Source of the DNA: a phage
Direction: 5' to 3' (one strand)
Sequence record: PZ379074.1
DNA: 64,000 nucleotides
Below are positions 3,099-60,165 of the stretch, one piece after another. The notes under the pieces were generated by a model. That model searched no databases and was not told the DNA's origin. It saw only the letters and a program-made list of their open reading frames with translations. A program made the translations under genes and the position numbers. The first letter of the stretch is position 1. Every line of letters starts with the position of its first letter.

Positions 3099-3273
3099 GG
3101 CTTTACAAGTCCTCATCCACTACCTGACACGCCTTTATCCTACGGCGCACGAGCAGAATCCATCAACTGGTCACCTGTTTAAGCGCCGTAACCTTTCGTT
3201 GAAAACATTCGCTTTAATCCAATACGACCGATACCTGGACGGGCGCTACTGCGGCCCGAAGGACTCACTATGA
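3064..3273 (+). CDS. hypothetical protein (69 aa)
   Basis: ORF overlapping upstream gene by 35 nt; basic protein. Confidence 0.35.
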   Translation: MNTQGRITKQRRALQVLIHYLTRLYPTAHEQNPSTGHLFKRRNLSLKTFALIQYDRYLDGRYCGPKDSL

Positions 3274-3548
3274 TTTCTACATACAAAGTGTTCTTTGTCA
3301 AGTGCACGTCATCGATTGATGACCAGTTTACTGCTGGAAAGAATTATCCCGTGATTTCTGAGTCAAGACTAGATATAATCTTGAACGATCATGAAATCTA
3401 TGAGCCGATGCCGGCAACTGCGTTTGATGTTATCGGTCACGTTCGGATTAAGACGAATGTTGAAACGATGCACGACCCGTTGTTCAAGAAGCAAATTAAG
3501 AATGCCATGCAAGACTTTTGCGCGGCTATGTTTAAATATTATAAGTGA
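3270..3548 (+). CDS. hypothetical protein (92 aa)
   Basis: ATGA overlap with upstream ORF; AAGGA RBS. Confidence 0.5.
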   Translation: MISTYKVFFVKCTSSIDDQFTAGKNYPVISESRLDIILNDHEIYEPMPATAFDVIGHVRIKTNVETMHDPLFKKQIKNAMQDFCAAMFKYYK

Positions 3549-3555
3549 GTTGAAG

Positions 3556-3777
3556 ATGAGCAAGAAAACTCTTAAGGCTGGGGACCGCATCCGTTGGATG
3601 TCAGGACAGAATATGCGCGCAGGCACCATCCTTGAGCTGGATCAATACCTTACTGATTCGCGCGGTCGCAATCACTATCGCGTTCGAATCGATACGGTAA
3701 AAGAAGATGACAAGTCACTGGTTGGTGAAGTAGTCATCGTTACTCCACGTCAAATTAAGGCGGCTTGTGAAGCATGA
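3556..3777 (+). CDS. hypothetical protein (73 aa)
   Basis: Start moved to internal ATG 3556 just after upstream stop (track ORF 3391..3777). Confidence 0.45.
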   Translation: MSKKTLKAGDRIRWMSGQNMRAGTILELDQYLTDSRGRNHYRVRIDTVKEDDKSLVGEVVIVTPRQIKAACEA

Positions 3778-3929
3778 ATAAATTTCAGTTTAACGATAAC
3801 AAGATTAGTAAAGCGGACGCAATCAAGCAGCTTCGCCGCGTACTTGAAGCCAGCGGCCATACAAAAGAGCGCGCACGCGTCTTAGCCAAAGAACATTATA
3901 AACGTTTTGTGTCACAAATCAGAGGTTAA
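3774..3929 (+). CDS. hypothetical small protein (51 aa)
   Basis: Not in track (<60 aa); ATGA overlap with upstream stop; ends 2 nt before next start. Confidence 0.35.
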   Translation: MNKFQFNDNKISKADAIKQLRRVLEASGHTKERARVLAKEHYKRFVSQIRG

Positions 3930-3931
3930 TT

Positions 3932-4414
3932 ATGATCATCCATCGCCCTTTAATGTTAAGTAAATCAGAAGCCGCAATTATTTTAGCGGCAGCAAGTCAA
4001 TGCGACGTCCCAATGCCATTAAGGATGAAAATAAATACATTTATCGACAACGAGTTTGCAGGTGTTGAGTCATTCAATATCTTACCGCCAACAAAAAGGC
4101 ATGTTGAAAGACTTGTCCATCATCAATCACGTTGCGTAAAAGTTCCTATTAAAACTTATGTTGATAAAAAGCCGCGCCTTAAACCTGTTCCGGCTGATAA
4201 AATAGAAGTCGGTGATGTTATCGTCTGCGTATATTACGGCAGTCAGATTTTCAATGCTGTTGTAGTAAGACGATACAGCATAAACGGCTGCCAATACATG
4301 GAAGTGACAAACGCAAAGAAAGAACCTGGCAGCTTGAACGTGGCTTATGCATTAAGGGAATTCAGCAGCCCTTCTTGCACTCTTTATAAGGTACTCGACC
4401 ATGGCTCATGTTAA
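3932..4414 (+). CDS. hypothetical protein (160 aa)
   Basis: ORF in packed array. Confidence 0.5.
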   Translation: MIIHRPLMLSKSEAAIILAAASQCDVPMPLRMKINTFIDNEFAGVESFNILPPTKRHVERLVHHQSRCVKVPIKTYVDKKPRLKPVPADKIEVGDVIVCVYYGSQIFNAVVVRRYSINGCQYMEVTNAKKEPGSLNVAYALREFSSPSCTLYKVLDHGSC

Positions 4415-10104: not shown

Positions 10105-10439
10105 TGAATAAACGAACACCGTTTACGTGTTTTGAAGAATGGAATGTGTACAATGGGTCGCTTTATGCGGCCTTTTGTTGTTTGGGTCGTGTTTTGCGAT
10201 GGAATAATTATGAGGTTGTGTTTTATTTATTAATTGTGCGGAAATATTTAGAAATATATTTCATAGGTCGTGTCTATTGGTCCGTGGTGTTTGTTAGGAC
10301 TTATCTATGGATTGAAATTTTAGTGTCGTGAAACGTGGTGTTTGAACACATTTGATACGCGTAAAATACGGCTAAAAATTAAGCGTATCATGGCTGCAGG
10401 CCGCGCCGTTACTGAGTTCCTATTTTCAAAAGTGGTACA

Positions 10440-10800
10440 CCCTTACGGATGATACGTCATGGTTTTTTATCCGTATCAGTGTACAGCCCTTGCCGCGCCT
10501 GGCCTGTACATTAATCTTACGGATGATACGGATAAAACTGGGCACCATTATATATATAATTTGAAAAATTAATTAACTCCATTTTAAAAACATTTAAATT
10601 ATTTTTTTCATATCCTCATACTTATGTTAATTTATATATTTAACGTATCATCCGTAAGATATAAGTAAAAACAAAGACTTGCGGCAATACGGATGATACG
10701 TTATGATACGCTTCGACCAGCCAGCAGCGGCTAAGTCATTGATTTGCATAACAAGCAGCGAAAGGGATGGATTTCTTTTATCCGTATCAAACAGTACACC
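10440..10800. repeat. iteron-like repeat cluster, 13-bp motif TACGGATGATACG / CGTATCATCCGTA, flanking an AT-rich tract
   Basis: Full copies at 10444-10456, 10518-10530, 10688-10700 (+) and 10644-10656 (rc), plus partial copies; AT-rich tract 10545-10640. Confidence 0.7.
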
Positions 10801-10939
10801 ACGCACCACGGTCCGTTATCCATTCAGCACTATGATTTGTGTACGTTTATAGCCATAATGAACATCAATCTGCACTTGAATATAATGTCCATCCATTGTA
10901 TAATTCACACTATTAATTTGCACTATGGGATTTTGCACT

Positions 10940-11413
10940 ATGAGTCAAGATTATGTAGCGATGCCTGAAGACTTTGAAGACCCGCGATTTGCAGAGCACA
11001 ATCAGGCTTTATTCGATGAGTTCATTGACCTTGTTATTCAGGGCCATGACATGCGCGCAGCTTTTGCACTAGTATTTGGAATGGAAGTTGCAACGGATAA
11101 CTACACTGGCCAGCGAATCCTTTGCGCGCAACGCAATCCATACTACAAGATGCGCTTCAAAAAGCGTATGGAAGAGATGCCACTCAAGGATTTGTGGAGC
11201 GTAAAAGGTGCAATTCACAATTTGGTCAAGCTTGTGCGTGATCCAGAAGTCGCGGCGTCAGCCAAACTTAATGCTATTCGTGAACTGAATATCATCTACG
11301 GCATCACGATGATTGATGAAAACGGCAATAGTAAAATGGGCCGTTCCATGGACGATTTCTACAAGGATTTTGGAGAGGCGGCCAAAGAAGGTGAGCAATT
11401 CTCCCGCCACTAG
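10940..11413 (+). CDS. hypothetical protein (157 aa); speculative small-terminase/DNA-binding candidate
   Basis: ORF flanked on both sides by the ATTTGCACTAT array; alternative start ATG 10925; no motif recognised. Confidence 0.5.
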   Translation: MSQDYVAMPEDFEDPRFAEHNQALFDEFIDLVIQGHDMRAAFALVFGMEVATDNYTGQRILCAQRNPYYKMRFKKRMEEMPLKDLWSVKGAIHNLVKLVRDPEVAASAKLNAIRELNIIYGITMIDENGNSKMGRSMDDFYKDFGEAAKEGEQFSRH

Positions 11414-11432
11414 CCAATTTGCACTATAAAAC

Positions 11433-11466
11433 GGCCCTAGAACACATTTTCTCCACTTCTAGGGCC
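11433..11466 (+). other. hairpin downstream of 10940..11413 (weak terminator candidate)
   Basis: GGCCCTAGAA ... TTCTAGGGCC 10-bp inverted repeat with 14-nt loop; no U-tract. Confidence 0.3.
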
Positions 11467-11841
11467 ATCGGTAATACGACGGGGAAGGTTACAACCATAA
11501 ACGCGTTATAAAGTGTATTATTATAAGTCATCTTTTAGTCACTTTCCGTAACAATTTACGACCTTCAACCGTCCAATCGAACGACTCCACCAGCAGATTT
11601 GCACTATAACCTAAGACTACCCGACCTTTCTCGTTATCGACCCGCCAGCAAGTCTCGAATAGCATCTTATTTGCACTATTAACTATCGCCGCAACTCGCG
11701 TAGGATAAGCGCAATTTGCACTATGGTCATAAAGGGATAAGGTGCGACCACTTCCGATGGACAACGTAGCGATGAGAATGAGCGTATTCATAAGCCACCA
11801 ATTTGCACTATGAAAAGCGACCCCGAAGGGCCGCCATTCTA

Positions 11842-12468
11842 TTAGATAATCTGGAAGGTGTAGGACTTGTTGCCGAACTCAAAGTTCAAGCGCCCAGCTT
11901 CCTTAAGCTTCATGCGGAAGCGAATGTGTTTGCTATCCGGCAAGCCCAGCGCGGCGAACGCTACGCGGACCGATTTGAACTCGCCTACACCCTCGACCAT
12001 GACACCGTTACGGGTGAGACGCTTTTGCGCCACTTCCTTATTATCCCAGCTTTTTGCAATACCTTCGCTATTCGAACGGCGATGGGAAGGAGTTCCATTT
12101 TGCACTACGCAATTTGCACTATCGTTTAAACCGCTCTTAACGAAGGCTTCATATTCTTCGTCGGTCATCGCGTCGAGTTCTTCCTGGGTCGGCTCAGCCT
12201 TTTTAACGACCGCACGCGCCTTATGCGTTTTTACATCGCTGGACACTTCCTCGCGCGGCTTCGCGTCGGGAATGGGCGATTCGTTGGACGGCTCATCGAG
12301 CGCGTTTAAGGACTCGATTAACGCGATTACGCGAGTCTCGGCGGTCCGGCGGTCCGCGAATTTCTTAATCGGCTTCGAACCGGAATTTGCATTATAAAAT
12401 GCAACGAGGTCGGCGGTCTTAGTTGCGATAACGTCGCCGCTAGTAGAAAAGCGATTTAAGCTAACCAT
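11842..12468 (-). CDS. hypothetical protein (208 aa); member of TTATTATG-start module
   Basis: Same RBS context AGGAGTTTATTATGG as 12549..12863; 3' third overlaps the ATTTGCACTAT repeats. Confidence 0.45.
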   Translation of the reverse strand: MVSLNRFSTSGDVIATKTADLVAFYNANSGSKPIKKFADRRTAETRVIALIESLNALDEPSNESPIPDAKPREEVSSDVKTHKARAVVKKAEPTQEELDAMTDEEYEAFVKSGLNDSANCVVQNGTPSHRRSNSEGIAKSWDNKEVAQKRLTRNGVMVEGVGEFKSVRVAFAALGLPDSKHIRFRMKLKEAGRLNFEFGNKSYTFQII

Positions 12469-12548: not shown

Positions 12549-12863
12549 TTACTCTTCGTCGTCTTCGATTAATTCGAGGGCGAAGGCGTAAGCTTTGCTA
12601 TCGTAATTAACTAAAACGGCGAGTTCGAACTCGTTAATAAACGCCGTTTTACCGCATAAATTTAATTCCGCATCGACTTCGAAGAATCCGTTTTCGTCGC
12701 GCTCTAAGCGAGAAGCAGCGAGTTGCTCGATTACCGTCGCGTCGTTAATTTCTTCGCCTAAGCGAACGCCGGAGAATTTAGCGAGAATTTCGCCGTAAGT
12801 AAGCGTAACGCCCTGGACTTCGGCGGTTGCGTTTTCGAGGGTAAAGCGGGTAACGATAGCCAT
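12549..12863 (-). CDS. small highly acidic protein (104 aa)
   Basis: Preceded by sigma70-like promoter, conserved 5'UTR hairpin and AGGAGTTTATTATG start context; ends ...LELIEDDEE. Confidence 0.6.
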   Translation of the reverse strand: MAIVTRFTLENATAEVQGVTLTYGEILAKFSGVRLGEEINDATVIEQLAASRLERDENGFFEVDAELNLCGKTAFINEFELAVLVNYDSKAYAFALELIEDDEE

Positions 12864-12931
12864 AATAAACTCCTAGTTGGGAGAGGCGTTAACGACCTAT
12901 TCGTTAACTCATCCCGTCCCGATATGAGTAC

Positions 12932-14096: not shown

Positions 14097-14470
14097 TGCA
14101 TGCGAAATTACATGCATCTAGAATAATCCCCACCGATATTATCCTACACGCAATCATTCGCTTTCGAATCATTATGCTTCATATTATTATGCATCGAATC
14201 ATTCTCTTTCGAATTGTAACGCTGGAAACTGTAACGGCGATTGATTATTGCGTTCGTGTGGTTTTTAGGGCATGGGTCTTTTGGTGCGTTTTGCTACTTG
14301 ATGAAATTTGCGGTACACTAATCAAAATACGACACATTTGGTCCACTAACTTTTCAAAGAAAAAGTCCTAGACAGTACCGTACTATTTTGCACCCACAGG
14401 AAATTTGCAGTACACTCCTGCGCGGCAGGCAAAATAAAGGGCCGCACTAAGCGACCCACTAAGCGACCCA
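14097..14470. repeat. non-coding repeat-rich region (short direct and inverted repeats)
   Basis: ATGCATG...CATGCAT inverted repeat near 14097; AATCATTC(G/T)CTTTCGAAT direct repeats near 14149 and 14201; (G/C)AGTACACT motifs near 14303 and 14400; tandem CACTAAGCGACCCA x2 at about 14445-14472. Confidence 0.5.
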
Positions 14471-19815: not shown

Positions 19816-21276
19816 ATGAATAAAATATTAACACATAATTGGAAAGTCATGTACCAGTTGAATCCTGCTTTAAGAGAAGTCTGGAAGACGAAGGCGCGAT
19901 ACAAAGTTATATACGGCGGTCGTGCATCTTCCAAATCGCATGATGCCGCTGGTTTTGCTATTTATTTGGCGGCAAACTTTAAATTAAAATTCCTTTGCGT
20001 TCGACAATTCCAGAACAAGATTTCTGAATCAGTATATACGCTATTAAAAGACAAAATAGAAATTTCTGATTTCAAAGACGAGTTCAACTTATTAAAGAAC
20101 TCTATTGAACACAAAAGAACAAAATCTGAATTTTTATTTTACGGTATCGCACGCAACGTTGACGAAATCAAATCAACAGAAGGTGTTGATGTTCTTTGGC
20201 TTGAAGAAGCGCATGCACTGACTGAAGAGCAATGGGACATTATTGAGCCGACAATTCGTAAGGAAGGGTCCGAAATATGGATCATATTTAACCCTGATGA
20301 AGAGGCTGATTTCGTCTACCAGAACTTTGTCATGCGACCGCCGAAAAATGCCATCGTTAAGAAGATTAACTGGCAGGACAATCCATTCTTGTCGCAAACA
20401 ATGCTGGATGTTATCGCTGGCATGTATGAGCGCGACCCGAAAAAGGCAGAACACGTTTATGGCGGAGTGCCGAAGACAGGCGGCGATAAGTCGGTCATCA
20501 ACCGTGCATTCGTCAAAGCCGCGCTAAACCTCCACAAACACCCTACGCTGGGATGGAGCTTGTCAGGGTCTAACCGTATAGGCTTCGACGTGGCGGACGA
20601 CGGCGACGACTTAAACGCCACAGCATTTGTCACAGGCAACGTATTACGTGGCATCAAGACATGGGAAGGTCTGGAAGATGAATTGCTTAAGTCCGCAAGC
20701 GGAGTTTGGAAAGACGCATTGACATTCGGCGCGTCAATTACCTATGACGCCATCGGTGTCGGTGCATTTGCTGGTTCAAAATTTGATGAGCTCAATGAGT
20801 ATGCAATACATGAAAATCCAACATTCCCAAGAATCGAATTTAATGCGTTCAACGCGCAAGGTGCTGTTGATGATCCTGATGACGTTTTCCTTGAGTTACC
20901 ACACGTTGAAATACTCAATAAAGACCATTTCGCAAACATAAAAGCGCAAAAATGGACTGAGATTGCCGAACGATTCAGAAAGACATATGAGTATGCGACA
21001 GGGCAAGCCGCATATCCGACCGATGAGTTGATTTCCATCGACACAGACGGCATTCCAGAACTTGGGATTCCTGCTTGGTCTGCGGAAGAAATTGAGACGT
21101 TTCTTTTTGAGATGTCAGCGCCGCGCAAAGACACGTCTGTTCTTGGTAAGTTCAAAGTTGAATCGAAAAAGGATATGGCAAAGCGTGGAGTTAAATCGCC
21201 TAACAAAGCGGACGCCGCAATCATGGCATTGATGAAACCAATTGTTGCAGCATCCGGCTTCTTCTCTAACCTTTAA
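19816..21276 (+). CDS. terL: terminase large subunit
   Basis: 486 aa; N-terminal ATPase region (GGRASSKSHDAAG; VLWLEEAH); first gene of head module, followed by portal. Confidence 0.75.
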   Translation: MNKILTHNWKVMYQLNPALREVWKTKARYKVIYGGRASSKSHDAAGFAIYLAANFKLKFLCVRQFQNKISESVYTLLKDKIEISDFKDEFNLLKNSIEHKRTKSEFLFYGIARNVDEIKSTEGVDVLWLEEAHALTEEQWDIIEPTIRKEGSEIWIIFNPDEEADFVYQNFVMRPPKNAIVKKINWQDNPFLSQTMLDVIAGMYERDPKKAEHVYGGVPKTGGDKSVINRAFVKAALNLHKHPTLGWSLSGSNRIGFDVADDGDDLNATAFVTGNVLRGIKTWEGLEDELLKSASGVWKDALTFGASITYDAIGVGAFAGSKFDELNEYAIHENPTFPRIEFNAFNAQGAVDDPDDVFLELPHVEILNKDHFANIKAQKWTEIAERFRKTYEYATGQAAYPTDELISIDTDGIPELGIPAWSAEEIETFLFEMSAPRKDTSVLGKFKVESKKDMAKRGVKSPNKADAAIMALMKPIVAASGFFSNL

Positions 21277-21932: not shown

Positions 21933-22094
21933 TTCAATCTCCTTTCGTTTGGTTAACTAAAATATAACTCAAAATGATACAAAAGCAAAATATTTTATGA
22001 ACTATTTATGATCACCATACATATCATTTGCTTACAAACACATGAATATTTATAATATAGATTGATTCCCTTTCACTGTCAGGTGGCGTTAACA

Positions 22095-24470
22095 ATGAAA
22101 ATTCTTGGCATAAAACTCTGGGAGAAGACGCAACCAGAAGCCGAACCAGCGGAGATGCCGCCAGGCGACCCATTGGCACCGTTTGAACGCCTTGAAAGGC
22201 GCGGCAGCGGTCAACGCTGGGAAAAGACTGAAAGCAATCGACCGACCTTTAAAACGGTTGATGACTTCCCTTTATATGAGCCTGATATTAATGGCGATGG
22301 TGTTGCAATCATAAAAGGTCGTTCAGTCGATTCCGCAACAGTATCCAAAAAGGTTATGGATAATGCCTTAAAGAACATCAGTTCAGAAGGGCAAGTCAAC
22401 CCATACACAGTACCTATTCAACTTCAAAACTGGTATTTGTCACAGTCATTCATCGGCTATCAAGCTTGTGCCATCATCGCACAGCATTGGCTGGTGAACA
22501 AGGCGTGTTCCATGGTAGGTCGCGATGCGGTCCGTAAAGGTTGGGAAGTCAAATCCAGTTCTGAGTCAGAATTGTCAGTACAGGCAAGCGAACGCCTAAA
22601 GCAAATTGATAAAGAATTTAATATCAAAGAGCACTTAGTTGAAGCCGAACGATTCAAAAATATTTTTGGTATCCGCGTCATCATATTTGATGTGCGTAGC
22701 GATGACCCAGAATATTACAGCAAGCCTTTTAACATTGATGGTGTGACAAAGGGGTCTTATAAGGGAATCATTCAGGTTGACCCTTATTGGATGATGCCGT
22801 TTCTGACGTCTGAAAACACAGCAGACCCTGCATCACAGCACTTCTATGACCCAGAATATTGGGTAATCAGCGGACAACGTTATCATCGCAGCCACCTCAT
22901 AATCTTGCGCAACGATGAGCCAGCTGATATTCTCAAGCCGACTTATATTTACGGCGGCATTCCTCTGACTCAGCAGATTTATGAACGCATCTATGCCGCT
23001 GAACGTACCGCTAACGAAGCGCCATTGCTGGCGATGTCCAAGCGTACAACCACGCTGCGGACCGACGTTGACAAGGCGATTGCCAATGAGCGGTCTTTTG
23101 CAGAACGTCTGATGATGTGGATCAAGTACCGCGACAACTATGCAGTTAAAGTGCTTGGCCAAAAAGAAGAGATGGACCAGTTTGACATCAACTTGTCAGA
23201 CTTCGACAGCATCATCATGAACCAGTACCAGCTTGTGGCCGCAATCGCAAAAGTTCCGTCGACCAAACTGCTTGGGACTTCGCCAAAAGGCTTTAACGCC
23301 ACTGGTGAATTCGAGATGGTCAGCTATCACGAAGAGTTGGAAACGTGCCAGCAGCATGACCTGACAAAAATTCTCGACCGCCATTACAAAATCCTTCTCA
23401 AATCAGAAGGGGTGGATGTCGATGTTAAGGTTGCATGGGAACCAGTTGGCTCACTTACTGCTACTCAACTTGCAGAAATCAATGATAAGCGAGCCAACAC
23501 TGGCAAAACTCTTATTGATGCTGGCGTCATTTCTCCTGATGAAGAGCGCGACCGCATCAAAGACGACAAAAACAGCGGCTACAACCGTCTGCCGGAAGAC
23601 GCAGCAGAAGAAACCCCAGGGATGTCTCCAGAGAATATGGCATTGCTTGGCAAGTCTGCTGGTGAAGTCCTGCAAGGTAAGGCCGATATTGAACAGGCGA
23701 AAGCTGATGTCGTTAAGATGGGCGGCCAGTTCTACAGTGAAACAGGCATTATGCCAGAGGGTGCCGCGCGTGGTGAGTTGGCGGAAAACCCTGACAAAGC
23801 GCCTGTCGAAATCAACATGGACGATACCGATGATGAATCAAGCCATCAGGTTGGTGTCCTAACGCAGTTGAAAGAAGGGCTGGAGGGTATTGCGGATTAC
23901 TACCTGAAAGAAGGTCAGGATGTGGATTTTGACCCTCAAAAAGATTCACGGTCGGTGCAACCGTCTACCCTTCCAAGCGTTAAAGGACACGTCGTCAACT
24001 TACGCCACAACGTGGGTAAAATGGACGCAGCATCATTACCTAAGATGAAGTTGCACGGAATGATTCTTGGCATTGAGAATCCGCGAAACAGCATTCGTAG
24101 AGGAAACAGCCTTGACGGTGAATGGGCCGTGAAGATGCCGCACCACTACGGATTCATCAAGGGCACCAAGGGCGCAGACGGTGATGAAGTCGACTGCTTT
24201 GTGGGTCCAAATCTGAAGTCGCCGAAAGTCTTTATCGTGAACCAAAACGATAACTACTCTGGCGAGTTTGATGAACACAAGTGTATGCTTGGATTCGATT
24301 CAGCAGAAGAAGCGAAAGAAGCTTATCAAGCATCATTTGGTAACGGTTGGAACGGATTCGACTCAATCCACGAATTAGATGTGAACTCATTCAAGGAGTG
24401 GTTGAAGGGTGATTGCTCTCAAGCATACGGAGCACTCAATAATCCTACTAATTCACCGAAGCAAGGTTGA
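22095..24470 (+). CDS. portal protein (long form with C-terminal extension)
   Basis: About 790 aa; position right after terL and before MuF-like gene; start set at ATG 22095 with GGTGG RBS. Confidence 0.6.
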   Translation: MKILGIKLWEKTQPEAEPAEMPPGDPLAPFERLERRGSGQRWEKTESNRPTFKTVDDFPLYEPDINGDGVAIIKGRSVDSATVSKKVMDNALKNISSEGQVNPYTVPIQLQNWYLSQSFIGYQACAIIAQHWLVNKACSMVGRDAVRKGWEVKSSSESELSVQASERLKQIDKEFNIKEHLVEAERFKNIFGIRVIIFDVRSDDPEYYSKPFNIDGVTKGSYKGIIQVDPYWMMPFLTSENTADPASQHFYDPEYWVISGQRYHRSHLIILRNDEPADILKPTYIYGGIPLTQQIYERIYAAERTANEAPLLAMSKRTTTLRTDVDKAIANERSFAERLMMWIKYRDNYAVKVLGQKEEMDQFDINLSDFDSIIMNQYQLVAAIAKVPSTKLLGTSPKGFNATGEFEMVSYHEELETCQQHDLTKILDRHYKILLKSEGVDVDVKVAWEPVGSLTATQLAEINDKRANTGKTLIDAGVISPDEERDRIKDDKNSGYNRLPEDAAEETPGMSPENMALLGKSAGEVLQGKADIEQAKADVVKMGGQFYSETGIMPEGAARGELAENPDKAPVEINMDDTDDESSHQVGVLTQLKEGLEGIADYYLKEGQDVDFDPQKDSRSVQPSTLPSVKGHVVNLRHNVGKMDAASLPKMKLHGMILGIENPRNSIRRGNSLDGEWAVKMPHHYGFIKGTKGADGDEVDCFVGPNLKSPKVFIVNQNDNYSGEFDEHKCMLGFDSAEEAKEAYQASFGNGWNGFDSIHELDVNSFKEWLKGDCSQAYGALNNPTNSPKQG

Positions 24471-26439: not shown

Positions 26440-26705
26440 ATGACGTATCATCCGTATCAAGTAAGTAGTTGTTTTCAAAAGAATCTTACGGATGATACGG
26501 ATGATACGCGTTGCCGCGATACTTTATAAGAGTTTATAAAAAAATAAAATTATATATCTAATTTAATTTTATTTTTTTATAAACTCTTATATATGAAAAG
26601 TATCCGTATCATCCGTATCATCCGTAGCACACCAGTGATAGCGCGGCTTATACACCGATACGGATAAAAATACACCTCATTTTATCCGTATCATCCGTAT
26701 CACAC
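26440..26705. repeat. iteron-like repeat cluster (TACGGATGATACG / CGTATCATCCGTA, tandem 9-mers) flanking a palindromic AT-rich element
   Basis: Copies at about 26444-26456, 26487-26507 (tandem), 26605-26627 (tandem), 26686-26700; same motif as 10440-10800. Confidence 0.7.
26526..26590. repeat. perfect 26-bp inverted repeat with 13-bp spacer, AT-rich
   Basis: ATAAGAGTTTATAAAAAAATAAAATT (26526-26551) exactly complementary to AATTTTATTTTTTTATAAACTCTTAT (26565-26590). Confidence 0.85.
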
Positions 26706-26811: not shown

Positions 26812-28230
26812 ATGCGAATGCAAACGGCACGCGAAATTGACAAAAATGGATTCTTGACGATTGTGGGTTGTCCCATTTCGTCATTTGGCATTTTTGATTA
26901 TTCTGCAGGTCAGGTTGGACTTGATGGTGATCCGAATCGCATCGTAAAAGTTTATCGCCCAGAGTCAGCGGTGAAAGACCCCGAAGCGATAGATTCATTC
27001 AAAAATATCCCTTTCATCGACAATCACGAAATGCTTTCTGGATTCGAAGGTGATGAGGATAACACAGCACCCGAAGAGTATGGCGTTGATGGCGTTCTAA
27101 CTGGCAATGTTTATTATGACAAGCCATGGATGCGCGGCGACCTTAAAGTTTTTAGCCGTCGTCTGAAGAAAGCCATCGATTCTGGAAAGGTTGACTTGTC
27201 TTTGGGCTATGACTGTGAATTCATCATACAGTCTGGAGAGTTTGACGGGCAGCCGTATGAAGTGGTACAGACAACTCTTCGCGGCAACCACATTGCTCTC
27301 GTGGACGTTGGTCGAGTACCAGGTGCACGGGTGCTGGATGGTCGTTGCTTTGACCATCTTTGTTTGACGACTGTAACACCATCCAACGAGGATTTAGACA
27401 TGCCAAAACCGTTAAAAGGTAAAGCGCGTGATAATGCTGTTGAACAGCTGAAATCACTGATCCCTGCGCTCGAACAATTTCTGAATGAAGAGAGCACCGA
27501 AGCTGCTCATCAGGACGAAGTTGAAGTGAAAGCAGAAGAGAAGGATTCAACCGAAGAACGTGAAGAAGTGATGGTTGATCCAGAAGTTAAAGCAGAAGCT
27601 GAAGAGACTCCAGAAGGTGAAGAGAAGTTTGAAGTTGAAACTGAATCTCACGCTGGCGGCGAGCTTCCGCAACTGATCAGCCAAATCGAAGCACTTATTG
27701 CAAAACTGAAAGGTGGCGCGGTAGGTGATGAAGAAGAAGTTGAAGCCGAAGTCAAAGACGAAGAAGTTGAAGTCAAGGCTGAAGATGTATCACCTTGCGA
27801 CAAAGCTGAAGATGTGGTTAGCGGCCTGCAAAACAGCAACGTAAAGGGGGCTTCGGTCGAAAAAGATGACAAACCGACAAAAGCGGCGAAAGCGTCGCCA
27901 GGTCCAGCAAAAGGGGAACACTCAATGGCATCTGATTCAGCAGTTGCTGCTTTCTACGCTGATTCTGCTCGTAAGAATAGCCTCTACCAGCGCCTGTCTA
28001 AAGTTGTTGGTGCCTTTGATCATGCAACTATGGACTCCAAGTCCGTAGCGAAATATGGCGCTAAAAAGTTAGGCTTGAAGTGCGTTGATGGTGCTGAGTT
28101 TGACGTGGTGGATAATTATCTGCGCGGCGTTGAACACGGTCAAAAACAGCGTGTAGTCGCAAAACAAAAGGCCGCTGCGGATTCTGCAGCAACTGACGAA
28201 GCATTTGAAGCTTGGTTGAAAGGGGAATAA
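26812..28230 (+). CDS. prohead protease/scaffolding-like protein (acidic coiled-coil middle region)
   Basis: 472 aa; Glu/Lys/Val-rich acidic repeat region; position between portal/MuF and capsid. Confidence 0.5.
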   Translation: MRMQTAREIDKNGFLTIVGCPISSFGIFDYSAGQVGLDGDPNRIVKVYRPESAVKDPEAIDSFKNIPFIDNHEMLSGFEGDEDNTAPEEYGVDGVLTGNVYYDKPWMRGDLKVFSRRLKKAIDSGKVDLSLGYDCEFIIQSGEFDGQPYEVVQTTLRGNHIALVDVGRVPGARVLDGRCFDHLCLTTVTPSNEDLDMPKPLKGKARDNAVEQLKSLIPALEQFLNEESTEAAHQDEVEVKAEEKDSTEEREEVMVDPEVKAEAEETPEGEEKFEVETESHAGGELPQLISQIEALIAKLKGGAVGDEEEVEAEVKDEEVEVKAEDVSPCDKAEDVVSGLQNSNVKGASVEKDDKPTKAAKASPGPAKGEHSMASDSAVAAFYADSARKNSLYQRLSKVVGAFDHATMDSKSVAKYGAKKLGLKCVDGAEFDVVDNYLRGVEHGQKQRVVAKQKAAADSAATDEAFEAWLKGE

Positions 28231-28864: not shown

Positions 28865-30004
28865 ATGACTCGCATTAGCCAAACACACTCTCGCCTCCCA
28901 GCGAGCAAGGTGCGCCCTTTTGATATGCAATCCGTGACCGACGCGGCTGTTTCCCAGCTTGCTCGTATCGGTATTGTGTTTGATTCCGCGATTGTGCGTG
29001 ATCAGATTGAGCACTTAAACCGTGCAGGCGCTTTCCGCGTAGGTGACGCCGCGTTTACTGCACCGCAGACCACGCCATCAATCCCGACTCCGCTGCAGTT
29101 CCTGCAACAGTGGTTGCCTGGCTTCGTCAAAATCATGACCGCTGCTCGTAAAATTGACGAGCTGGTTGGTATTGACACCGTTGGTCAGTGGGAAGATGCA
29201 GAAATCGTTCAGGGCATCGTTGAACCAGCTGGCACCGCAGTTGAATATGGTGATTTCACCGCTATTCCTCTGGCAAGCTGGAACGTAAACTTTGAGCGAC
29301 GCTCCATCGTTCGCGGTGAAATGGGCATGGCAGTCGGCATGCTGGAAGAAGGTCGCGCGTCTGCGATGCGTCTGAACTCCGCAGAGACCAAGCGCCAGCA
29401 GGCTGCTGTATCTCTGGAAATCATGCGTAACGCAATCGGCTTCTATGGCTGGTACAACGGGAACAACCGCACGTTCGGCTTCCTGAATGATCCAAACCTG
29501 CCAGCGGCGATGACTTCAAACACCACTTCCGGCTGGGCTACTGCGACCTTCCAACAGGTGACTGCAGACATCCGTTTGATGGTTCGTCAAATCCGTGTCA
29601 ACTCTCAGGACCAGATTGATCCAGAGAAGGTTGATATGACTCTGGCGCTGCCGACCAACTCTATTGATTGGCTGTCAAACACCACCGACTTCGGTATTTC
29701 TGTACGTGACTGGATCACCCAAACTTATCCGAAGATGAAGATCAAATCTGCACCGGAACTCAACGGCGCACTTGGCAGTGACCCGACTTTCCTGAACGTG
29801 GCATATCTGTACGCTGATCACATCGATTCTTCAATTGATGGCTCAAGCGACGATGGTTCCGTATTCAGCCAGCTGGTTCAGACTAAGTTCATGACTCTGG
29901 GCGTTGAGAAACGCGCTAAGAGCTACGTTGAAGACTACGCAAACGCAACAGCAGGCGTTCTGCTCAAGCGTCCTTTCGCAGTCGTCCGTATGACTGGAAT
30001 CTAA
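28865..30004 (+). CDS. major capsid protein (putative)
   Basis: 379 aa; position after scaffold; high-expression-type codons; followed by hairpin. Confidence 0.6.
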
Positions 30005-54836: not shown

Positions 54837-55255
54837 GACAATTCCTCTAAATACTTGATGATGTGATGAATAGTTCCCTTCACGATTATCTCACGTTGAA
54901 CGTCTGCAGTATTATAACGCTTTAATTCAATAGAAGGGTGGACTAAATAAAACATCTTCTCAGAATCAACTTTAAGTAAAACGAATGATGGGTATCGCCA
55001 ATCATTCCAAGACGAAAGAAAGCTGCATTGGCCTTTCTCAAATGCATTTCTGAAAGGTGCAGTGGTGGCCCTTGCAGGCCACGATTCAAAGAACTTCATT
55101 TCAAGCCAAAAGCCGCGCCCTTTCCGGTTGGTGCCGATTACGTCCGGCACACCATCACCCGTCATTGATTCGATTCTTTGAAGCTTCAAGATTGATTCTG
55201 AATGCTTCTTCAAAGGCACGAATATGTATTTCTGTTCACGGTTATTTGTTGCCAT
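54833..55255 (-). CDS. VRR-NUC / PD-(D/E)xK-type nuclease (putative)
   Basis: GVPDVIGTNRKGRGFWLEMK (D...E.K pattern); start set at internal Met; overlaps end of polymerase gene. Confidence 0.45.
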   Translation of the reverse strand: MATNNREQKYIFVPLKKHSESILKLQRIESMTGDGVPDVIGTNRKGRGFWLEMKFFESWPARATTAPFRNAFEKGQCSFLSSWNDWRYPSFVLLKVDSEKMFYLVHPSIELKRYNTADVQREIIVKGTIHHIIKYLEELS

Positions 55256-58139
55256 TTGGATACACCTGTTTGATAACGTCGACGATGAACATGTCAATGC
55301 CTTCAAGTTTGCGGCCTTTCATCAGAAAGAATGCGCCGTTCCCGACGTTCTCTGCAATGTATTTCCCGTATTTCTGGAACTTCTCTGGACGAATCCTGAA
55401 GCGCATTGGCGAGTCGGTCGAATCGTCCTTGCACATAAGGTCAATGAACTGAGTCTCAAGCTTGTTTCCATACTGGTCAAACTCTGCGTAGCGGCCATCA
55501 GCTTGAAGACCCTTTTTAAGTTTGCCGTGCTTTGTATAAATGCCGCGCTCAAGACGTTTACGGATGCGTGTCGCTTCGTTCTCGTCAGCCAGCACTTTCT
55601 TGGTCAACTTGCCGATCACTATTGCACGCTCGTCATCTCCGACTTCCTTCATCTGGCGTATTGAAGCACCGGAAGTAACGCCAATCAGATAGGGGTCATT
55701 ATATGCCCAGCCGAACTTTGTGTGCATTTCGGTAAGGTCGCCGTATTTAACTTCAGCATTGGCCAATGCGTCCTTCTGTTTTTGCGTTAAGGTTCCGGCT
55801 TCACGCGCTTCGATGTACTTCATCGCCTTCACCATGCCATATCCTTTTGCGTTCATGATGCCGCCGATTAGCTTTCCGTTAGCGATGGTCCAGTTCATTG
55901 AAGAGTGATCAGGGTCGATTGGCACATAATCCACGCCTTCCTTCGCAAGTTCACGTAATATAGCAATCGTCTGGTCTTCGTCCTTAGCAGCGCGTAAGCA
56001 AGCAGCGGCAAATTCCAACGGGTAGTGTCGCTTAAGCCACAAGGTCCAGTAGGTCACGACCGCGTATGATACGGAGTGTGACTTGTTAAAGCCCCATGAC
56101 CCGAACGTCGCCATCGCTTGCCAAAGCTTTCTTGCATCCGCTTCCGGTACGCCGTTATTTATTGCGCCTGCAACGAAGTCTTCGCCAAGCTTGTTAAAGT
56201 ATTCCTCACCCTTACGACCTGACATCGCCTTACGTACAGCGGATGTTTTCGCCCAGTCAAATGAACCAATCTCTTTAACCACGGCCATGATTTGCTCTTG
56301 GTAAAGAAACACGCCGTAAGTCTCTTTTAAGTACGGCTCAAGCTGCGGCACGTCGTACTCAATCGGCGCACGTCCTGCCGCGCGTTCAATGTATTTCTGG
56401 GCCATACCGGACGACAACGGGCCAGGTCGGCCAAGTGCTGTCAGGTTATCGATTTTGTTAAAGTTATCAACGTGCACAAAGTTGGTCACTGAGCGTACAG
56501 CGTCGCCTTCAAACTGGAAGATGCCTGACATCTTGTTTTCGTTAAGGATGTCAAGGACGCTTTGGTCATCAAGCTTGATTCCGTACAGCGTTTCAGCATC
56601 TATCACGCCAGTATCAGAAATGATTCCGAGGGTACGAAGACCCAATGCATCAAGCTTCAAAAGGTTAAGGTATTCGCTGTCAGGCTTATCAATTTGCGCA
56701 ATCCCTTCCGCCGTCACCGTACAGTAATCAGAGATTGGGTCATTACACACAATGATTCCCGCTGCGTGAACGCCAGTGTGGGAAGGGTGAATCTCAAGGT
56801 CACCCATGCAACGCGCGGCGTCAGGATATTTCGCCACGAACTCTTGACCCGTAGTCGTTGTTGCAAAGGTATCCTCCAGGCCGTGACCATAACGGGCGTC
56901 ACCGGATGAGTATTCAAGCAGTGCGTTTTTAATGTTGGCCGTTTCGTGATATCCAATGTTGAACTTCTTACCAACCTGCGCCATTACTGAGTTGGCCTTA
57001 AGCGTGTTTATGTTGCCAAGCTTTGCAACGTTCATTTCGCCGTATTTCTCTTTAAGATAATCAAACACCATATAGCGTTTGGTATCTTCAAAGTCGATGT
57101 CGATGTCAGGAAGGTCGGCGCGGCTTACGTCGATGAATCGGGCAAACAGCAGCTTATACGGGATTGGGTCCACTTCCGTGATGCCGAGACAATAGCAAAC
57201 AAGTGAACCAGCCGATGAGCCGCGAGCAGGCCCGACTAGCATTTTTGTTTTTGCGAATCGTACAAGGTCCGCTACCACCAGAAAGTATGAGTCGAAATCT
57301 TTCAGCTGAATCTGGTGAATTTCTTCGTTGAAGCGGTCCTCATATTCCTGAGTCCATTCTTTGATGTGACCTGCTTTTAGACGGTACTCCATCCCCTCGC
57401 GAGCAAGCTTTACCATGTCACCAGCAAGGTGGATAATCGGTGCCTTTCGCAGCTTCAGGTCAAGCCCAACGATTCCGTTTGCAATATCAATCGCATTGAC
57501 CGTTGCCTGATCAAGCTCATCTTCAGTCAAGATTCCTTTAAGCTGTTTGCGCAAGTCTTCAACGTCAACGATGCAATGCGGCTTAACCGTGTCGCGCACT
57601 TCCCACGCATAAGCGAAGTCAACGTGCTCAGGAGAAGGCATGTGATTGTATCCGGTTAAAACCAGCGGCCTTCCACTGCTACGATGAGCCAACGCCTGGC
57701 GCTTTGCCAAAAGGAACGACGATGGGTTGACGTCTATATAGTCGTAGTCCTCTGGCCGCAGCAGTTCCACGGCACCGCCACAGAATTTAACGACGCCATC
57801 GAGCGCCCCGAACTCTGCACGGGTAAGACCACCACGCTGCGTTGCAAGTGTTGTAGCGTTGTAAAAAGATTTTAAGTCAAGGGCCAATATCCAAGCCTTC
57901 GGTTTGAATCCCTTTTTCGGGTCCGCATCAGGGTCGATGATTGGAATCTCCATTCCAAACATAGGCTTAATATCATTTTTCTGGCATTCCTTTTCCCAGC
58001 GAACGTGACCCCATGTGTTGTTATCAACTAATGCCGCGACTTCGCAGCCCAACTCTTTGAGCCGTGCTATAATTTCAGGATGCCGTCCATAAACTTCTTT
58101 GAACGTGTAACCGCTGCGAACTCTCAATTGTGGAAACAT
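55242..58139 (-). CDS. DNA polymerase III alpha (DnaE)-like replicative polymerase
   Basis: 965 aa; N-terminal PHP-like region and long polymerase core; adjacent separate DnaQ-like exonuclease. Confidence 0.75.
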   Translation of the reverse strand: MFPQLRVRSGYTFKEVYGRHPEIIARLKELGCEVAALVDNNTWGHVRWEKECQKNDIKPMFGMEIPIIDPDADPKKGFKPKAWILALDLKSFYNATTLATQRGGLTRAEFGALDGVVKFCGGAVELLRPEDYDYIDVNPSSFLLAKRQALAHRSSGRPLVLTGYNHMPSPEHVDFAYAWEVRDTVKPHCIVDVEDLRKQLKGILTEDELDQATVNAIDIANGIVGLDLKLRKAPIIHLAGDMVKLAREGMEYRLKAGHIKEWTQEYEDRFNEEIHQIQLKDFDSYFLVVADLVRFAKTKMLVGPARGSSAGSLVCYCLGITEVDPIPYKLLFARFIDVSRADLPDIDIDFEDTKRYMVFDYLKEKYGEMNVAKLGNINTLKANSVMAQVGKKFNIGYHETANIKNALLEYSSGDARYGHGLEDTFATTTTGQEFVAKYPDAARCMGDLEIHPSHTGVHAAGIIVCNDPISDYCTVTAEGIAQIDKPDSEYLNLLKLDALGLRTLGIISDTGVIDAETLYGIKLDDQSVLDILNENKMSGIFQFEGDAVRSVTNFVHVDNFNKIDNLTALGRPGPLSSGMAQKYIERAAGRAPIEYDVPQLEPYLKETYGVFLYQEQIMAVVKEIGSFDWAKTSAVRKAMSGRKGEEYFNKLGEDFVAGAINNGVPEADARKLWQAMATFGSWGFNKSHSVSYAVVTYWTLWLKRHYPLEFAAACLRAAKDEDQTIAILRELAKEGVDYVPIDPDHSSMNWTIANGKLIGGIMNAKGYGMVKAMKYIEAREAGTLTQKQKDALANAEVKYGDLTEMHTKFGWAYNDPYLIGVTSGASIRQMKEVGDDERAIVIGKLTKKVLADENEATRIRKRLERGIYTKHGKLKKGLQADGRYAEFDQYGNKLETQFIDLMCKDDSTDSPMRFRIRPEKFQKYGKYIAENVGNGAFFLMKGRKLEGIDMFIVDVIKQVYPNGNK

Positions 58140-58681
58140 TATTTACTCCAGATGTCATATACGCCAATTTGTTGGCAGACTTTGTGCAGTAATATTACGT
58201 CGTCTAATGCACGGTGTTTCTGTTCATATTTTCCGAAATATAATTCATACAGCTCTTGAAGCTTAACTCTTCGGCCAAAAATAGGCAAGGTTTGCTCAAC
58301 TGTACAAATGTTTATTTCTGGAAAATTAACATCATCAAGCGTAAGTCCTTCGCGCTGTAGTGCATAATCAAGAATGTTTTTATCGAACGCATGGTTGTGC
58401 GCGATAGTGGCATCCGTCTTCTTGAAGATTTCTTTTAGCTGCGGGACAAAATTGATGAATGGTGGATTGCACTCAAGGTCTTCATTTGTTAATCCGGTAA
58501 TCTTTGTGATAATTTCTTCAATCACGATTTCAGGATTAATTATGAATTCAAACGTTTCAAGAATCTCTTTGCCGTCTGTCAACAGGCCTGCAAATTCAAT
58601 AGGGCGCGGCTGCATCCCAAGCGGCGCTTTCGGGTGCACGGTCAATCCGGTTGTTTCGAAGTCATAAGGGAGAAATAACAC
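58139..58681 (-). CDS. DnaQ-like 3'-5' exonuclease (DEDDh)
   Basis: 180 aa; Exo I DFETTG, Exo II HNHAFD, Exo III HRALDD; stop overlaps polymerase start. Confidence 0.8.
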   Translation of the reverse strand: MLFLPYDFETTGLTVHPKAPLGMQPRPIEFAGLLTDGKEILETFEFIINPEIVIEEIITKITGLTNEDLECNPPFINFVPQLKEIFKKTDATIAHNHAFDKNILDYALQREGLTLDDVNFPEINICTVEQTLPIFGRRVKLQELYELYFGKYEQKHRALDDVILLHKVCQQIGVYDIWSK

Positions 58682-58735
58682 ATTAGCCTCCTACAAAAAG
58701 GCCGCCCATTAGGACGGCCACAGATTCACGATTCA

Positions 58736-59287
58736 TTATACAGTGTACGGAGTACCGTCTTGATTCAACCGCACGATGAACTTAAGGTCGACACCAATGA
58801 TTTCACGCGTATCAAAGATAACATAGTTGTAACGACGCTGACCAGCAATGTTTGGGTTGGTGTGAGAGTCGGTCACAACTTCCTGCGCAACCTGAATGCC
58901 TTCTTCTTTAAAGAACTTGCGCCATTCAGCAAGTTCAGCGGCAGTCACGTGCATACCAAGATGGCTAACCTGATTGTCGTGCGCATCGATGTATTCGATG
59001 TTTTCGTGAATCCAGTTGCAACCTTTTGTATAGTCAAGAATTTCAAGCTCAAGAGGCTTACCAGCGTCGCCATCGGTGCCGTTGCCAGCCTGATAGTTGA
59101 AGCGCAAGTCAGCTTCGTTGGTGCAATCGCCGCGCTGACCCTTAAAGACATCAGCTTCAAATACGCGACCAGTAGCAACAACGTGATCATGGAACCATTC
59201 TGTCAGGCCGATTTTAGCCAGGAAATTCTGTGCGCGCTGAGCACCTGGAATTGACAGGGCGATTTGTTCAATTTTAAAATGTGGCAT
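58736..59287 (-). CDS. hypothetical protein (183 aa), in nucleotide-metabolism operon
   Basis: ORF co-directional with SDR/HAD/thyX genes; no motif recognised. Confidence 0.5.
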   Translation of the reverse strand: MPHFKIEQIALSIPGAQRAQNFLAKIGLTEWFHDHVVATGRVFEADVFKGQRGDCTNEADLRFNYQAGNGTDGDAGKPLELEILDYTKGCNWIHENIEYIDAHDNQVSHLGMHVTAAELAEWRKFFKEEGIQVAQEVVTDSHTNPNIAGQRRYNYVIFDTREIIGVDLKFIVRLNQDGTPYTV

Positions 59288-59481: not shown

Positions 59482-60165
59482 TTATTTCCCAAATGGAATA
59501 TCAGTACCAGACATAAAGCGCCATGCGCCCGTAATTAAGATATGGCGAATGAAGTCAGCAATTACTTGCGGCTCAGTCTCCAATCCATTCATCAGCGCCT
59601 TTTTCTGGTATTCAGCAGCATACTCAGGAGTCCAGCCGCGAGTCGCACAAACAGCATCTTCAATCTGTTTGGACATGCCAGTACCACGTAACTTATTAGG
59701 ACTAATAGAAAATACCGTGATCCCGTATTTAGGCGTAAGCTCGTGAGCCATCTGCTTGCTAATCATGAGCGCAGCAGCCTTGGAAGCATTATAACACAAG
59801 CTGGACGTCATAGGAATATGCGCAGCGTTGGAAACGATGTTGATCACAAAACCTTTGTTGTCGATAAGACTTTTCAGCGCGGCTTGAGTTGTGTTAACGA
59901 AAGAGAAGGCGTTGGTATGCATAACGCGGTTAAACTCTTCGTAGTTGACATCTTCAAACCAGTTGTTGGAGTTGACTCCAGCACAGTTGATCAAGCCTTC
60001 TACATCATATGGGCTTAAAATTTCTTTCATCTGTTTAGCGTCGCGGACGTCATATCCGTATGCTGAATCGATTCCAAGCACGTTATGACCGTAAGCGCCA
60101 AGGGTGTCAAAAATAGATTTACCAAGACCGGAATTGGAACCTGTTACAACAATTACTTTTTTCAT
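59482..60165 (-). CDS. short-chain dehydrogenase/reductase (SDR) family oxidoreductase
   Basis: 227 aa; cofactor motif TGSNSGLGK (TGxxxGxG); catalytic YNASK (YxxxK). Confidence 0.7.
   Translation of the reverse strand: MKKVIVVTGSNSGLGKSIFDTLGAYGHNVLGIDSAYGYDVRDAKQMKEILSPYDVEGLINCAGVNSNNWFEDVNYEEFNRVMHTNAFSFVNTTQAALKSLIDNKGFVINIVSNAAHIPMTSSLCYNASKAAALMISKQMAHELTPKYGITVFSISPNKLRGTGMSKQIEDAVCATRGWTPEYAAEYQKKALMNGLETEPQVIADFIRHILITGAWRFMSGTDIPFGK

Follow-up and report, generated by a model that had tools for sequence, protein, structure and literature searches.

Organization of the locus

The DNA considered here is a 64,000-nucleotide stretch of a phage genome (sequence record PZ379074.1; the whole stretch is referred to as the window). 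It belongs to Wifcevirus, a group of Escherichia coli myoviruses, its relatives WFC, WFH, ECML-117 and Mansfield being 90-96% identical to it at the nucleotide level. Wifceviruses are in turn distant relatives of the Pseudomonas Pbunavirus (PB1/E217) group. The element under study is an array of short motifs, all in one orientation, located around the gene of the small terminase subunit (terS) and just inside the predicted left end of the genome, and it is examined as a candidate set of recognition sites for the small terminase protein, TerS. The gene terS converges with a conserved gene for a 208-amino acid protein, and between them lies a minus-strand open reading frame (ORF) of 87 codons. 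The features of the locus are the following.

10581, no strand: predicted physical left end and left boundary of the direct terminal repeat (DTR), ATTTTAAAA..., placed from the relatives Mansfield, WFC and WFH
10876-10904, plus strand: predicted sigma-70-like terS promoter, TTGAAT-17-TATAAT (consensus scan, 10/12 matches)
10916-10926, plus strand: motif copy 1, ATTTGCACTAT, unchanged across 10 Wifcevirus genomes and placed in the predicted 5' leader of terS
10931-10941, plus strand: motif copy 2, TTTTGCACTAT, one mismatch; its last two bases are the first two of the terS ATG
10940-11413, plus strand: terS, small terminase subunit, 157 amino acids (phmmer match to PDB 7UXE; the Mansfield homologue is annotated terS)
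11062-11072, plus strand: motif copy 3, TTTTGCACTAG, within terS, encoding F-A-L
11417-11427, plus strand: motif copy 4, 4 nt past the terS stop codon and before the hairpin
11433-11466, no strand: perfect hairpin with a 10-bp stem, GGCCCTAGAA...TTCTAGGGCC, a predicted terminator between the convergent genes, labelled as such in the WFC and WFH records
11528-11791, minus strand: conserved 87-amino acid ORF with a signal-peptide-like N-terminus, hosting copies 5-7
11597-11607, plus strand: motif copy 5, within the 87-amino acid ORF
11669-11679, plus strand: motif copy 6, within the 87-amino acid ORF; syntenic copy in the metagenomic contig L003
11714-11724, plus strand: motif copy 7, within the 87-amino acid ORF; syntenic copy in L003
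11801-11811, plus strand: motif copy 8, between the start of the 87-amino acid ORF and the terminator of the 208-amino acid gene; aligned copies in the metagenomic contigs L003 and L004
11842-12468, minus strand: conserved 208-amino acid gene, phrog_4730, function not assigned, convergent with terS and forming the right limit of the array
12098-12122, plus strand: motif copies 9 and 10 (TTTTGCACTAC, then ATTTGCACTAT 14 nt further on), both within the variable linker of the 208-amino acid gene
12385-12395, plus strand: degenerate motif copy 11, ATTTGCATTAT, within the 208-amino acid gene, not conserved

Distribution of the motif

The 11-mer ATTTGCACTAT occurs seven times in the window, always on the plus strand (10916, 11417, 11597, 11669, 11714, 11801 and 12112), against 0.08 copies expected from dinucleotide-preserving shuffles, of which none in 100 reached seven. 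The same-strand array reported in the initial annotation is therefore real. The eighth exact copy, placed there at 10932, starts at 10931 and differs from the 11-mer at one position, and the CA said often to precede the motif is found before four of the seven exact copies. The core 9-mer TTTGCACTA is present ten times, on the plus strand throughout and always inside 10917-12121, with no copy elsewhere in the 64 kb, and ranks first among all 9-mers of the window for clustering. The genome-wide count and strand test proposed in the same annotation gave a concordant picture in TH35, a close relative with a complete genome of 69,093 bp, where seven exact 11-mers and ten core 9-mers lie on one strand in a single 1.2-kb cluster and neither word is found outside it. 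The array is hence unique in the window and in a complete genome, as expected of a pac- or cosB-type site. The array segment was absent from 5,426 E. coli genomes.

From 10916 to 11801 the copies are separated by 15, 131, 355, 180, 72, 45 and 87 bp, with no helical phasing (Rayleigh p=0.31), and neither a −35 nor any other element is kept outside the 11-mer. The interval 11414-11840, originally described as devoid of a convincing ORF, does contain one, since the minus-strand frame 11528-11791 encodes a conserved protein and hosts three of the copies.

The small terminase gene and the genome end

The 157-amino acid product of 10940-11413 was matched by phmmer against the PDB to the E217 TerS decamer (7UXE) over residues 3-147, with E=7.3e-34; it had no Pfam match. 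Its AF2 model (pLDDT 74) gave 7uxe_A as the sole significant Foldseek match in the PDB (E=1.6e-5, probability 1.00), the next ones, weak, being the PaP3/NV1 TerS. As modelled, the protein would present the N-terminal helical/helix-turn-helix region, the helical oligomerisation core and the small beta element of the TerS fold. On these sequence and fold matches the product is an E217-type small terminase, and the earlier suggestion that the enclosed ORF might be a terS gene was borne out by them. The recognition sequence of E217-type TerS proteins is not known (PMC9611059).

Adjacency of the array to terS holds in 10 genomes, where the copies range from −24 to +861 as counted from the terS ATG, and likewise in four diverged clades. 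The TATAAT of the predicted terS promoter, 36-45 nt before the ATG, does not vary among four aligned diverged clades, and in three of the four, the window included (10916, 10931), motif copies are located between this box and the ATG. Overexpression of E217 TerS has been reported to lower E217 infectivity (PMC9611059); this toxicity together with the leader copies would fit an autoregulation of terS.

Wifceviruses carry a DTR of about 3.7 kb (PMC6563267, PMC6753283). The Mansfield record was opened at a PhageTerm-predicted boundary, while the WFC and WFH records hold both copies of the repeat, which in WFC is 3784 bp long and exactly duplicated within the record. All three records start at the base homologous to window position 10581 and have terS at +361, so that the first motif copy would stand 335 bp inside the genome end and the array lies wholly within the terminal repeat. 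With the termini taken from the relatives, these 335 bp represent the closeness to a physical end that is expected of a pac- or cosB-type site. The left boundary is the same in the three records; the right one maps to window position 14281 (Mansfield) or 14362 (WFC), about 80 bp apart.

Many Logan/ENA contigs that contain terS or the 208-amino acid gene span only 3.3-4.4 kb, an example being one of 3755 bp with terS at 351-833. Contigs of this size are to be expected if a terminal repeat with double coverage assembles as a contig of its own, and they suggest that uncultured relatives also have DTRs of about 3.7 kb starting some 350 bp upstream of terS.

Conservation of the array

Conservation within the genus was analysed in a MAFFT alignment of ten Wifcevirus genomes covering a 1.9-kb region (mean pairwise identity 94.7%). 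Of the 88 columns that make up the eight copies between 10916 and 11811, 4 are variable, versus 287 of 1832 in the rest of the region (Fisher p=0.002), and judging from this alignment the eight copies are under purifying selection at the DNA level. Copy 3 is kept at +122 in every Wifcevirus genome examined and in L003, and may be held partly by the protein sequence; the arrangement of copy 2, ending in the terS ATG, is also present in L003. The three copies inside the 208-amino acid gene (12098, 12112 and 12385) vary in 15 of 33 columns, copies 9 and 10 alone (12098, 12112) in 11 of 22, and two of the ten genomes, Ro157lw and RCIP0319, do without all three. Since these three copies are variable, the selected array consists of the eight copies around terS and the 87-amino acid ORF.

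Beyond the genus, arrays were found in three metagenomic contigs and in Pantoea phage Kyle (Kylevirus), whose TerS proteins are 65% (L003), 48% (L004), 45% (L005) and 41% (Kyle) identical to that of the window in the TerS alignment. The Kyle record contains an exact 3603-bp DTR with terS at +357. The four share the synteny of the window, with terS convergent with a homologue of the 208-amino acid gene, and each has 8-11 copies on the terS strand, from about −150 to +1150 of the terS start, in flanking DNA that has diverged. All eight TGCACTA words of L003, all nine of L004 and all eleven degenerate words of L005 fall within this interval and on the terS strand, the bias in interval and strand having a binomial p of 1e-8 to 1e-11 in these contigs; Kyle has 11 copies at 582-1478. 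The pooled consensus of 49 copies is rATYYGCACTAY.

Two minus-strand genes of Kyle hold seven of its copies, which use two of the three codon phases, and in L004 no gene is called in the same interval; thus the array is a property of the DNA between terS and the 208-amino acid gene, whatever that DNA encodes. Likewise, the copies run across intergenic DNA, terS and minus-strand genes, which points to a constraint on the DNA and not on a peptide. An artefact of a repeated peptide was discarded on the same grounds, copies being present in non-coding DNA, on both coding strands and, in Kyle, in two codon phases. This conservation beyond the genus is the strongest line of evidence obtained.

Packaging mode and TerS residues

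The array is found in phages with fixed DTRs of about 3.6-3.8 kb (Wifcevirus and Kyle). Pbunaviruses, reported to have terminally redundant, circularly permuted genomes packaged by a headful mechanism (PMC12345254), show the same synteny of terS and the 208-amino acid gene and a TerS 39-42% identical to that of the window, and the GCACTA array was absent from the Pbunavirus relatives examined, among which E217 has a TerS without appreciable DNA binding (PMC9611059). It was also absent from the Serratia, Burkholderia and Aeromonas relatives examined. As far as these genomes go, it is suggestive that the presence of the array tracks the packaging mode. In the TerS alignment Arg65, located in an xRNPYYK segment, and Asp138 are invariant in six array-bearing proteins, while in four array-less ones Arg65 is replaced by Ser or Ala and Asp138 by Ala. 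These two residues are candidates for a role in specificity or DNA contact.

A counterpart of the array was sought in Pbunavirus; none with GCACTA was found, and the GTAATTTGG repeats detected there correspond to the other repeat family of the window (TACGGATGATACG, see below). In Pbunavirus SCUT-S1, GTAATTTGG is present six times on one strand, in two clusters only (12700-12900 and 58579-58920), one upstream of the head-protease gene and the other upstream of terS, as in the two-cluster layout of TACGGATGATACG in the window.

The syntenic slot of the array holds other short repeats in two array-less phages. At 60065-60140 of SCUT-S1 (equivalent to 4073-4150 of L006) three of the four TTCTAGG words of the 66-kb genome fall within 70 bp after the terS stop codon, the other strand of the genome having none, and these words may be a mini-array. 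In Serratia phage Hera (Myosmarvirus) three direct repeats of about 25 nt (AAAAAATAAGCATGCTTTGTAKRGG) follow terS immediately, at 4009-4150, as a clade-specific set.

Neighbouring genes

The 87-amino acid ORF is, by alignment, a real protein, because its homologues in L003, L005 and RCIP0319 align with 27 invariant columns, Cys and Trp residues included, and do so in contigs whose TerS is only 45-65% identical. Copies 5-7 each encode x-S-A-N by the identical codons xAT-AGT-GCA-AAT, the outcome expected from a DNA-level constraint laid over a coding sequence. The most distant homologues carry other residues at the S-A-N positions. The N-terminus of the protein is hydrophobic and signal-peptide- or lipoprotein-like, and Kyle gp002 looks, by eye, like a homologue.

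The 208-amino acid protein is conserved down to Pbunavirus, with 41% identity. As a recognisable DNA-binding protein it was rejected, no Pfam, PDB or profile match being found. Its single-sequence AF2 model was unusable (pLDDT 40), and the homology search gave near-identical sequences only. The protein has conserved N- and C-terminal domains joined by a variable acidic linker, and both domains resemble, by eye only, helix-extended-helix DNA-binding motifs.

The remaining genes placed in the window are these.

517-2187: primase/helicase
19816-21276, plus strand: terL, large terminase subunit (phrog_3717 and phrog_2, E=9e-75), about 8.9 kb from terS
22062-24470: portal
26812-28230: protease
28865-30004: major capsid protein
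55242-58139: DNA polymerase

Other repeats near the genome ends

Two further features lie close to the array or to the right boundary of the DTR.

11587-11594, plus strand: CCACCAGC, complement of E. coli Chi, the sole exact copy in the window, abutting motif copy 5
14304-14330, plus strand: motif-related element AAATTTGCGGTACACTAATCAAAATAC, beside the right DTR boundary, with a second partial copy at 14401-14416

The window has just two exact occurrences of the sequence AAATTTGC[G/A]GTACACT, which bracket 14362 and lie about 23 nt past 14281, and Kyle has a similar element, AATTTCACAGTACACTAATCAGAAT (about 3629-3653), some 25-50 nt past its right DTR boundary. The positions hint that the right-boundary element could be related to a stop, or packaging-termination, signal. 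It resembles an array motif interrupted by 3-4 additional bases, and the four plus-strand RGTACAC words of the window all stand no more than about 215 bp from a DTR boundary.

A second repeat family, TACGGATGATACG (10 exact copies versus about one expected) with the overlapping TGATACGGATAAAA, is confined to two clusters, 10353-10789 and 26444-26702, each made of inverted arms around an AT-rich centre. The left end at 10581 is within about 6 bp of the centre of a 24-nt inverted repeat (10507-10530/10644-10667), and the second cluster lies around a long AT-rich palindrome (about 26531-26587) that precedes the protease/capsid operon. Contig L003 keeps ATGATACGT repeats at the same place. The family could be a site for a late-gene regulator, an origin, or part of the terminase cut signal.

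The main motif was also considered as Chi (5'-GCTGGTGG-3') and is unrelated to it in sequence. The Chi complement CCACCAGC occurs once in the window, nine times in Kyle, seven in L004 and four in Serratia phage Hera, accumulating on the terS strand a short way inside the left end of the genome. The nine Kyle copies (255-1979) are exact and all on the terS strand, with none on the other strand, in the first 2 kb; six of those in L004 are in the first 2.5 kb (323-1831) and the seventh is at 4348, while those in Hera are at 3237-4340. By the established polarity of Chi, CCACCAGC is oriented so as to act on RecBCD that comes in through the left end. Because Chi in this orientation would stop RecBCD coming from that end, the Chi complements inside it suggest a role in end protection.

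Comparison with known packaging systems

The order of cut site, sites, terS and further sites, together with a motif orientation that agrees with terS transcription, makes the locus of the same type of layout as cosN-cosB-Nu1 and pacL-pacC-pacR. In the pac region of SPP1/SF6 (pacL-pacC-pacR, TerS G1P), short repeated TerS boxes lie on both sides of the region of cleavage and terS start and extend into terS, and packaging proceeds in the direction of terS transcription, an organisation that is established and summarised in PMC9611059. The SPP1 pac differs in spanning about 270 bp with few boxes and in serving headful packaging, whereas here 8-11 copies on one strand cover 0.9-1.5 kb within phages having an exact 3.7-kb DTR; moreover, the SPP1 TerS family is not detectably related in sequence to that of the window. 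Lambda also presents the cut site, then repeated TerS sites, then terS, the gpNu1 sites R3-R2-R1 of cosB being placed between cosN and Nu1. These sites are needed to anchor the terminase for the initial cut. Lambda has three 16-bp R elements in about 120 bp, with an IHF site in addition, and its ends are cohesive, while the window has no cohesive ends and its sites are more numerous and more dispersed, most of them downstream of terS. P1 pac, with seven TGATCA/G hexamers in two clusters inside pacA, resembles the array in having many very short words in and around a terminase gene and a unique packaging site. However, the P1 hexamers, packed into 162 bp, are sites of Dam methylation and the cut falls between the clusters, while the word of the window is 9-12 bp long, has no GATC, and would lie downstream of a cut about 335 bp from the first copy.

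With E217 and Pbunavirus the window shares a homologous TerS (42% identity in the structural alignment, E=7e-34) and a gene order of primase/helicase followed by terS convergent with the 208-amino acid homologue, terS being far from terL; the difference is that those phages are reported permuted headful packagers lacking the GCACTA array. T7 and T3 likewise have fixed ends, one at each boundary of a repeat of which every concatemer junction contains a single copy, and a recognition element near the left end. Their DTR differs, being 160 bp in T7, where the pacB signals are not repeat arrays and packaging is coupled to transcription by T7 RNA polymerase, versus 3.7 kb in the window, where it contains terS itself.

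A candidate TerS recognition array

The reading favoured here, with a probability of about 0.5, is that of an oriented, dispersed TerS recognition array, similar to pac or cosB, whose two leader copies may also autoregulate terS. In it, TerS oligomers (rings) would bind rATTTGCACTAT words starting 335 bp inside the left DTR boundary and flanking terS. Bound TerS would mark phage concatemers and recruit TerL (19816-21276), which would cut at the AT-rich left boundary, 10581, and packaging would run rightwards, in the direction of the motif and of terS transcription. Copies 1 and 2, between the terS −10 box and the ATG, would let TerS repress its own synthesis. A terminase recognition array had been one of three roles initially put forward for the motif, and it is supported by the identity of terS, the position at the left end and the common travel of array and terS across diverged clades, while binding by TerS is what we infer. 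The more general role then proposed, binding by some DNA-binding protein of the phage, agrees with the data and covers recognition by TerS. The third, a phage-specific promoter core, did not hold, for reasons given below.

Several points weigh against recognition by TerS. E217 TerS, the only homologue studied, showed no appreciable DNA binding in vitro according to a review by the laboratory behind 7UXE (PMC9611059), and the conserved and uncharacterised 208-amino acid neighbour could be the binder instead. Known pac and cosB sites are much more compact than the array, whose copies are spread over about 900-1500 bp at uneven intervals of 12-600 bp and show no helical phasing. Three of its eleven copies are not conserved, and the invariance of the GCACTA core in the pooled consensus is partly a product of how the pooled copies were picked. 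The correlations with packaging mode and with Arg65 and Asp138, suggestive as they are, come from few independent lineages. Finally, the TACGGATGATACG/TGATACGGATAAAA family flanks the left end far more closely and could be the true terminase signal.

Some of these points would agree with another phage or host protein binding the motif, either for regulation or for the nucleoprotein organisation of the terminal repeat, TerS being a mere neighbour. Such a protein might act as a repressor or roadblock at the junction of terS and the 208-amino acid gene, silence early genes of the DTR, or build a centromere-like or injection-related complex. The array is located exactly between these two conserved convergent genes in all five clades, one of the two encodes an uncharacterised protein, and copies 1 and 2 are in an operator position downstream of the terS −10 box; the lack of binding by E217 TerS in vitro (PMC9611059) would be accounted for as well. 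Nevertheless, no candidate with a recognisable DNA-binding domain was found nearby, and the 208-amino acid protein is equally conserved in Pbunavirus, which has no array. Operators, moreover, are usually few and palindromic, not 8-11 oriented copies running through coding DNA, and the link with fixed-end packaging would be left unexplained. A binder other than TerS is thus considered unlikely. A role in replication is still less probable, whether as iterons or some other cis element of an origin or in recombination-dependent replication at the end of the genome. In its favour are the direct, oriented nature of the repeats and the presence of an AT-rich tract (10548-10640) at 270 bp, and the properly oriented Chi complements of the same segment in relatives indicate that this end interacts with RecBCD, but the copies are irregularly spaced (12-600 bp), neither tandem nor phased as iterons would be, and agree with the DnaA-box consensus at no more than 6 to 7 of its 9 positions in a manual comparison. 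There is no adjacent initiator gene, the primase/helicase being about 9 kb away, and the headful relatives share the replication module and yet do without the array.

In the promoter-core role each copy would drive transcription towards the right, which might help to draw the DNA into the cell in the manner of the T7 early promoters. The common orientation of all copies near the genome end, the resemblance of CACTAT to the −5 to +1 core of T7/SP6-type promoters and the pair of copies preceding terS would suit it. However, the motif is confined to one cluster and is not distributed upstream of genes elsewhere in the genome; at least six copies point into minus-strand genes or terminators, with no plus-strand ORF before about 13.0 kb; and conservation ends with the 11-mer, which has no −35 partner. 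Besides, a conserved sigma-70 −10 box already precedes the copies at terS, and copy 2 overlaps the ATG, so that a start site downstream of it could not express terS. No RNA polymerase was found among the ORFs of at least 600 amino acids, small sigma-like proteins not having been screened exhaustively; the products of those ORFs match structural families or DNA polymerase, except for an unclassified one of 912 amino acids (phrog_4797, a weak structural-protein match). The promoter reading was discarded on the distribution of the copies, their orientation relative to genes and the lack of a polymerase among the large ORFs, and it is regarded as highly improbable, more so than the iterons. An RNA-level role is unlikely: comparison of 10-15 kb with Rfam gave no match at E<=0.1, and each of the two convergent transcripts would carry the word in a different sense. 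A DnaA box, an NtrC half-site, the −12 element of sigma-54 promoters and a T4 MotA box gave only partial matches, by eye, with the partner elements missing.

Implications for long-repeat packaging

Repeated TerS sites beside terS are a known kind of element; what is unusual here is the dispersed and strictly oriented architecture inside a kilobase-long terminal repeat. The sequence TTTGCACTAT was not found in a phage context in the literature searched. For most of the TerS rings solved, that of E217 included, sequence-specific binding in vitro is weak or undetectable and the target sequence is not known (PMC9611059), and the array would be the first candidate recognition sequence for the E217-type TerS family: a short, conserved and concrete one. 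Little has been worked out on the choice of the two cut sites by phages whose exact terminal repeats are kilobases long, and the array-bearing DTR phages and their array-less headful relatives form a natural set for comparison. The finding is also of relevance for engineering or rebooting therapeutic phages of Wifcevirus and Pbunavirus and for judging their transduction potential.

A bolder proposal, which must be taken as speculative, is that an oriented array of 8-11 sites together with the right-boundary element turns a headful terminase of the Pbunavirus type, for which a sequence preference has not been reported, into a site-specific maker of exact 3.6-3.8-kb DTRs, with TerS autoregulating its synthesis through the same sites. 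If true, it would constitute a previously undescribed architecture of start and stop signals in long-DTR packaging.

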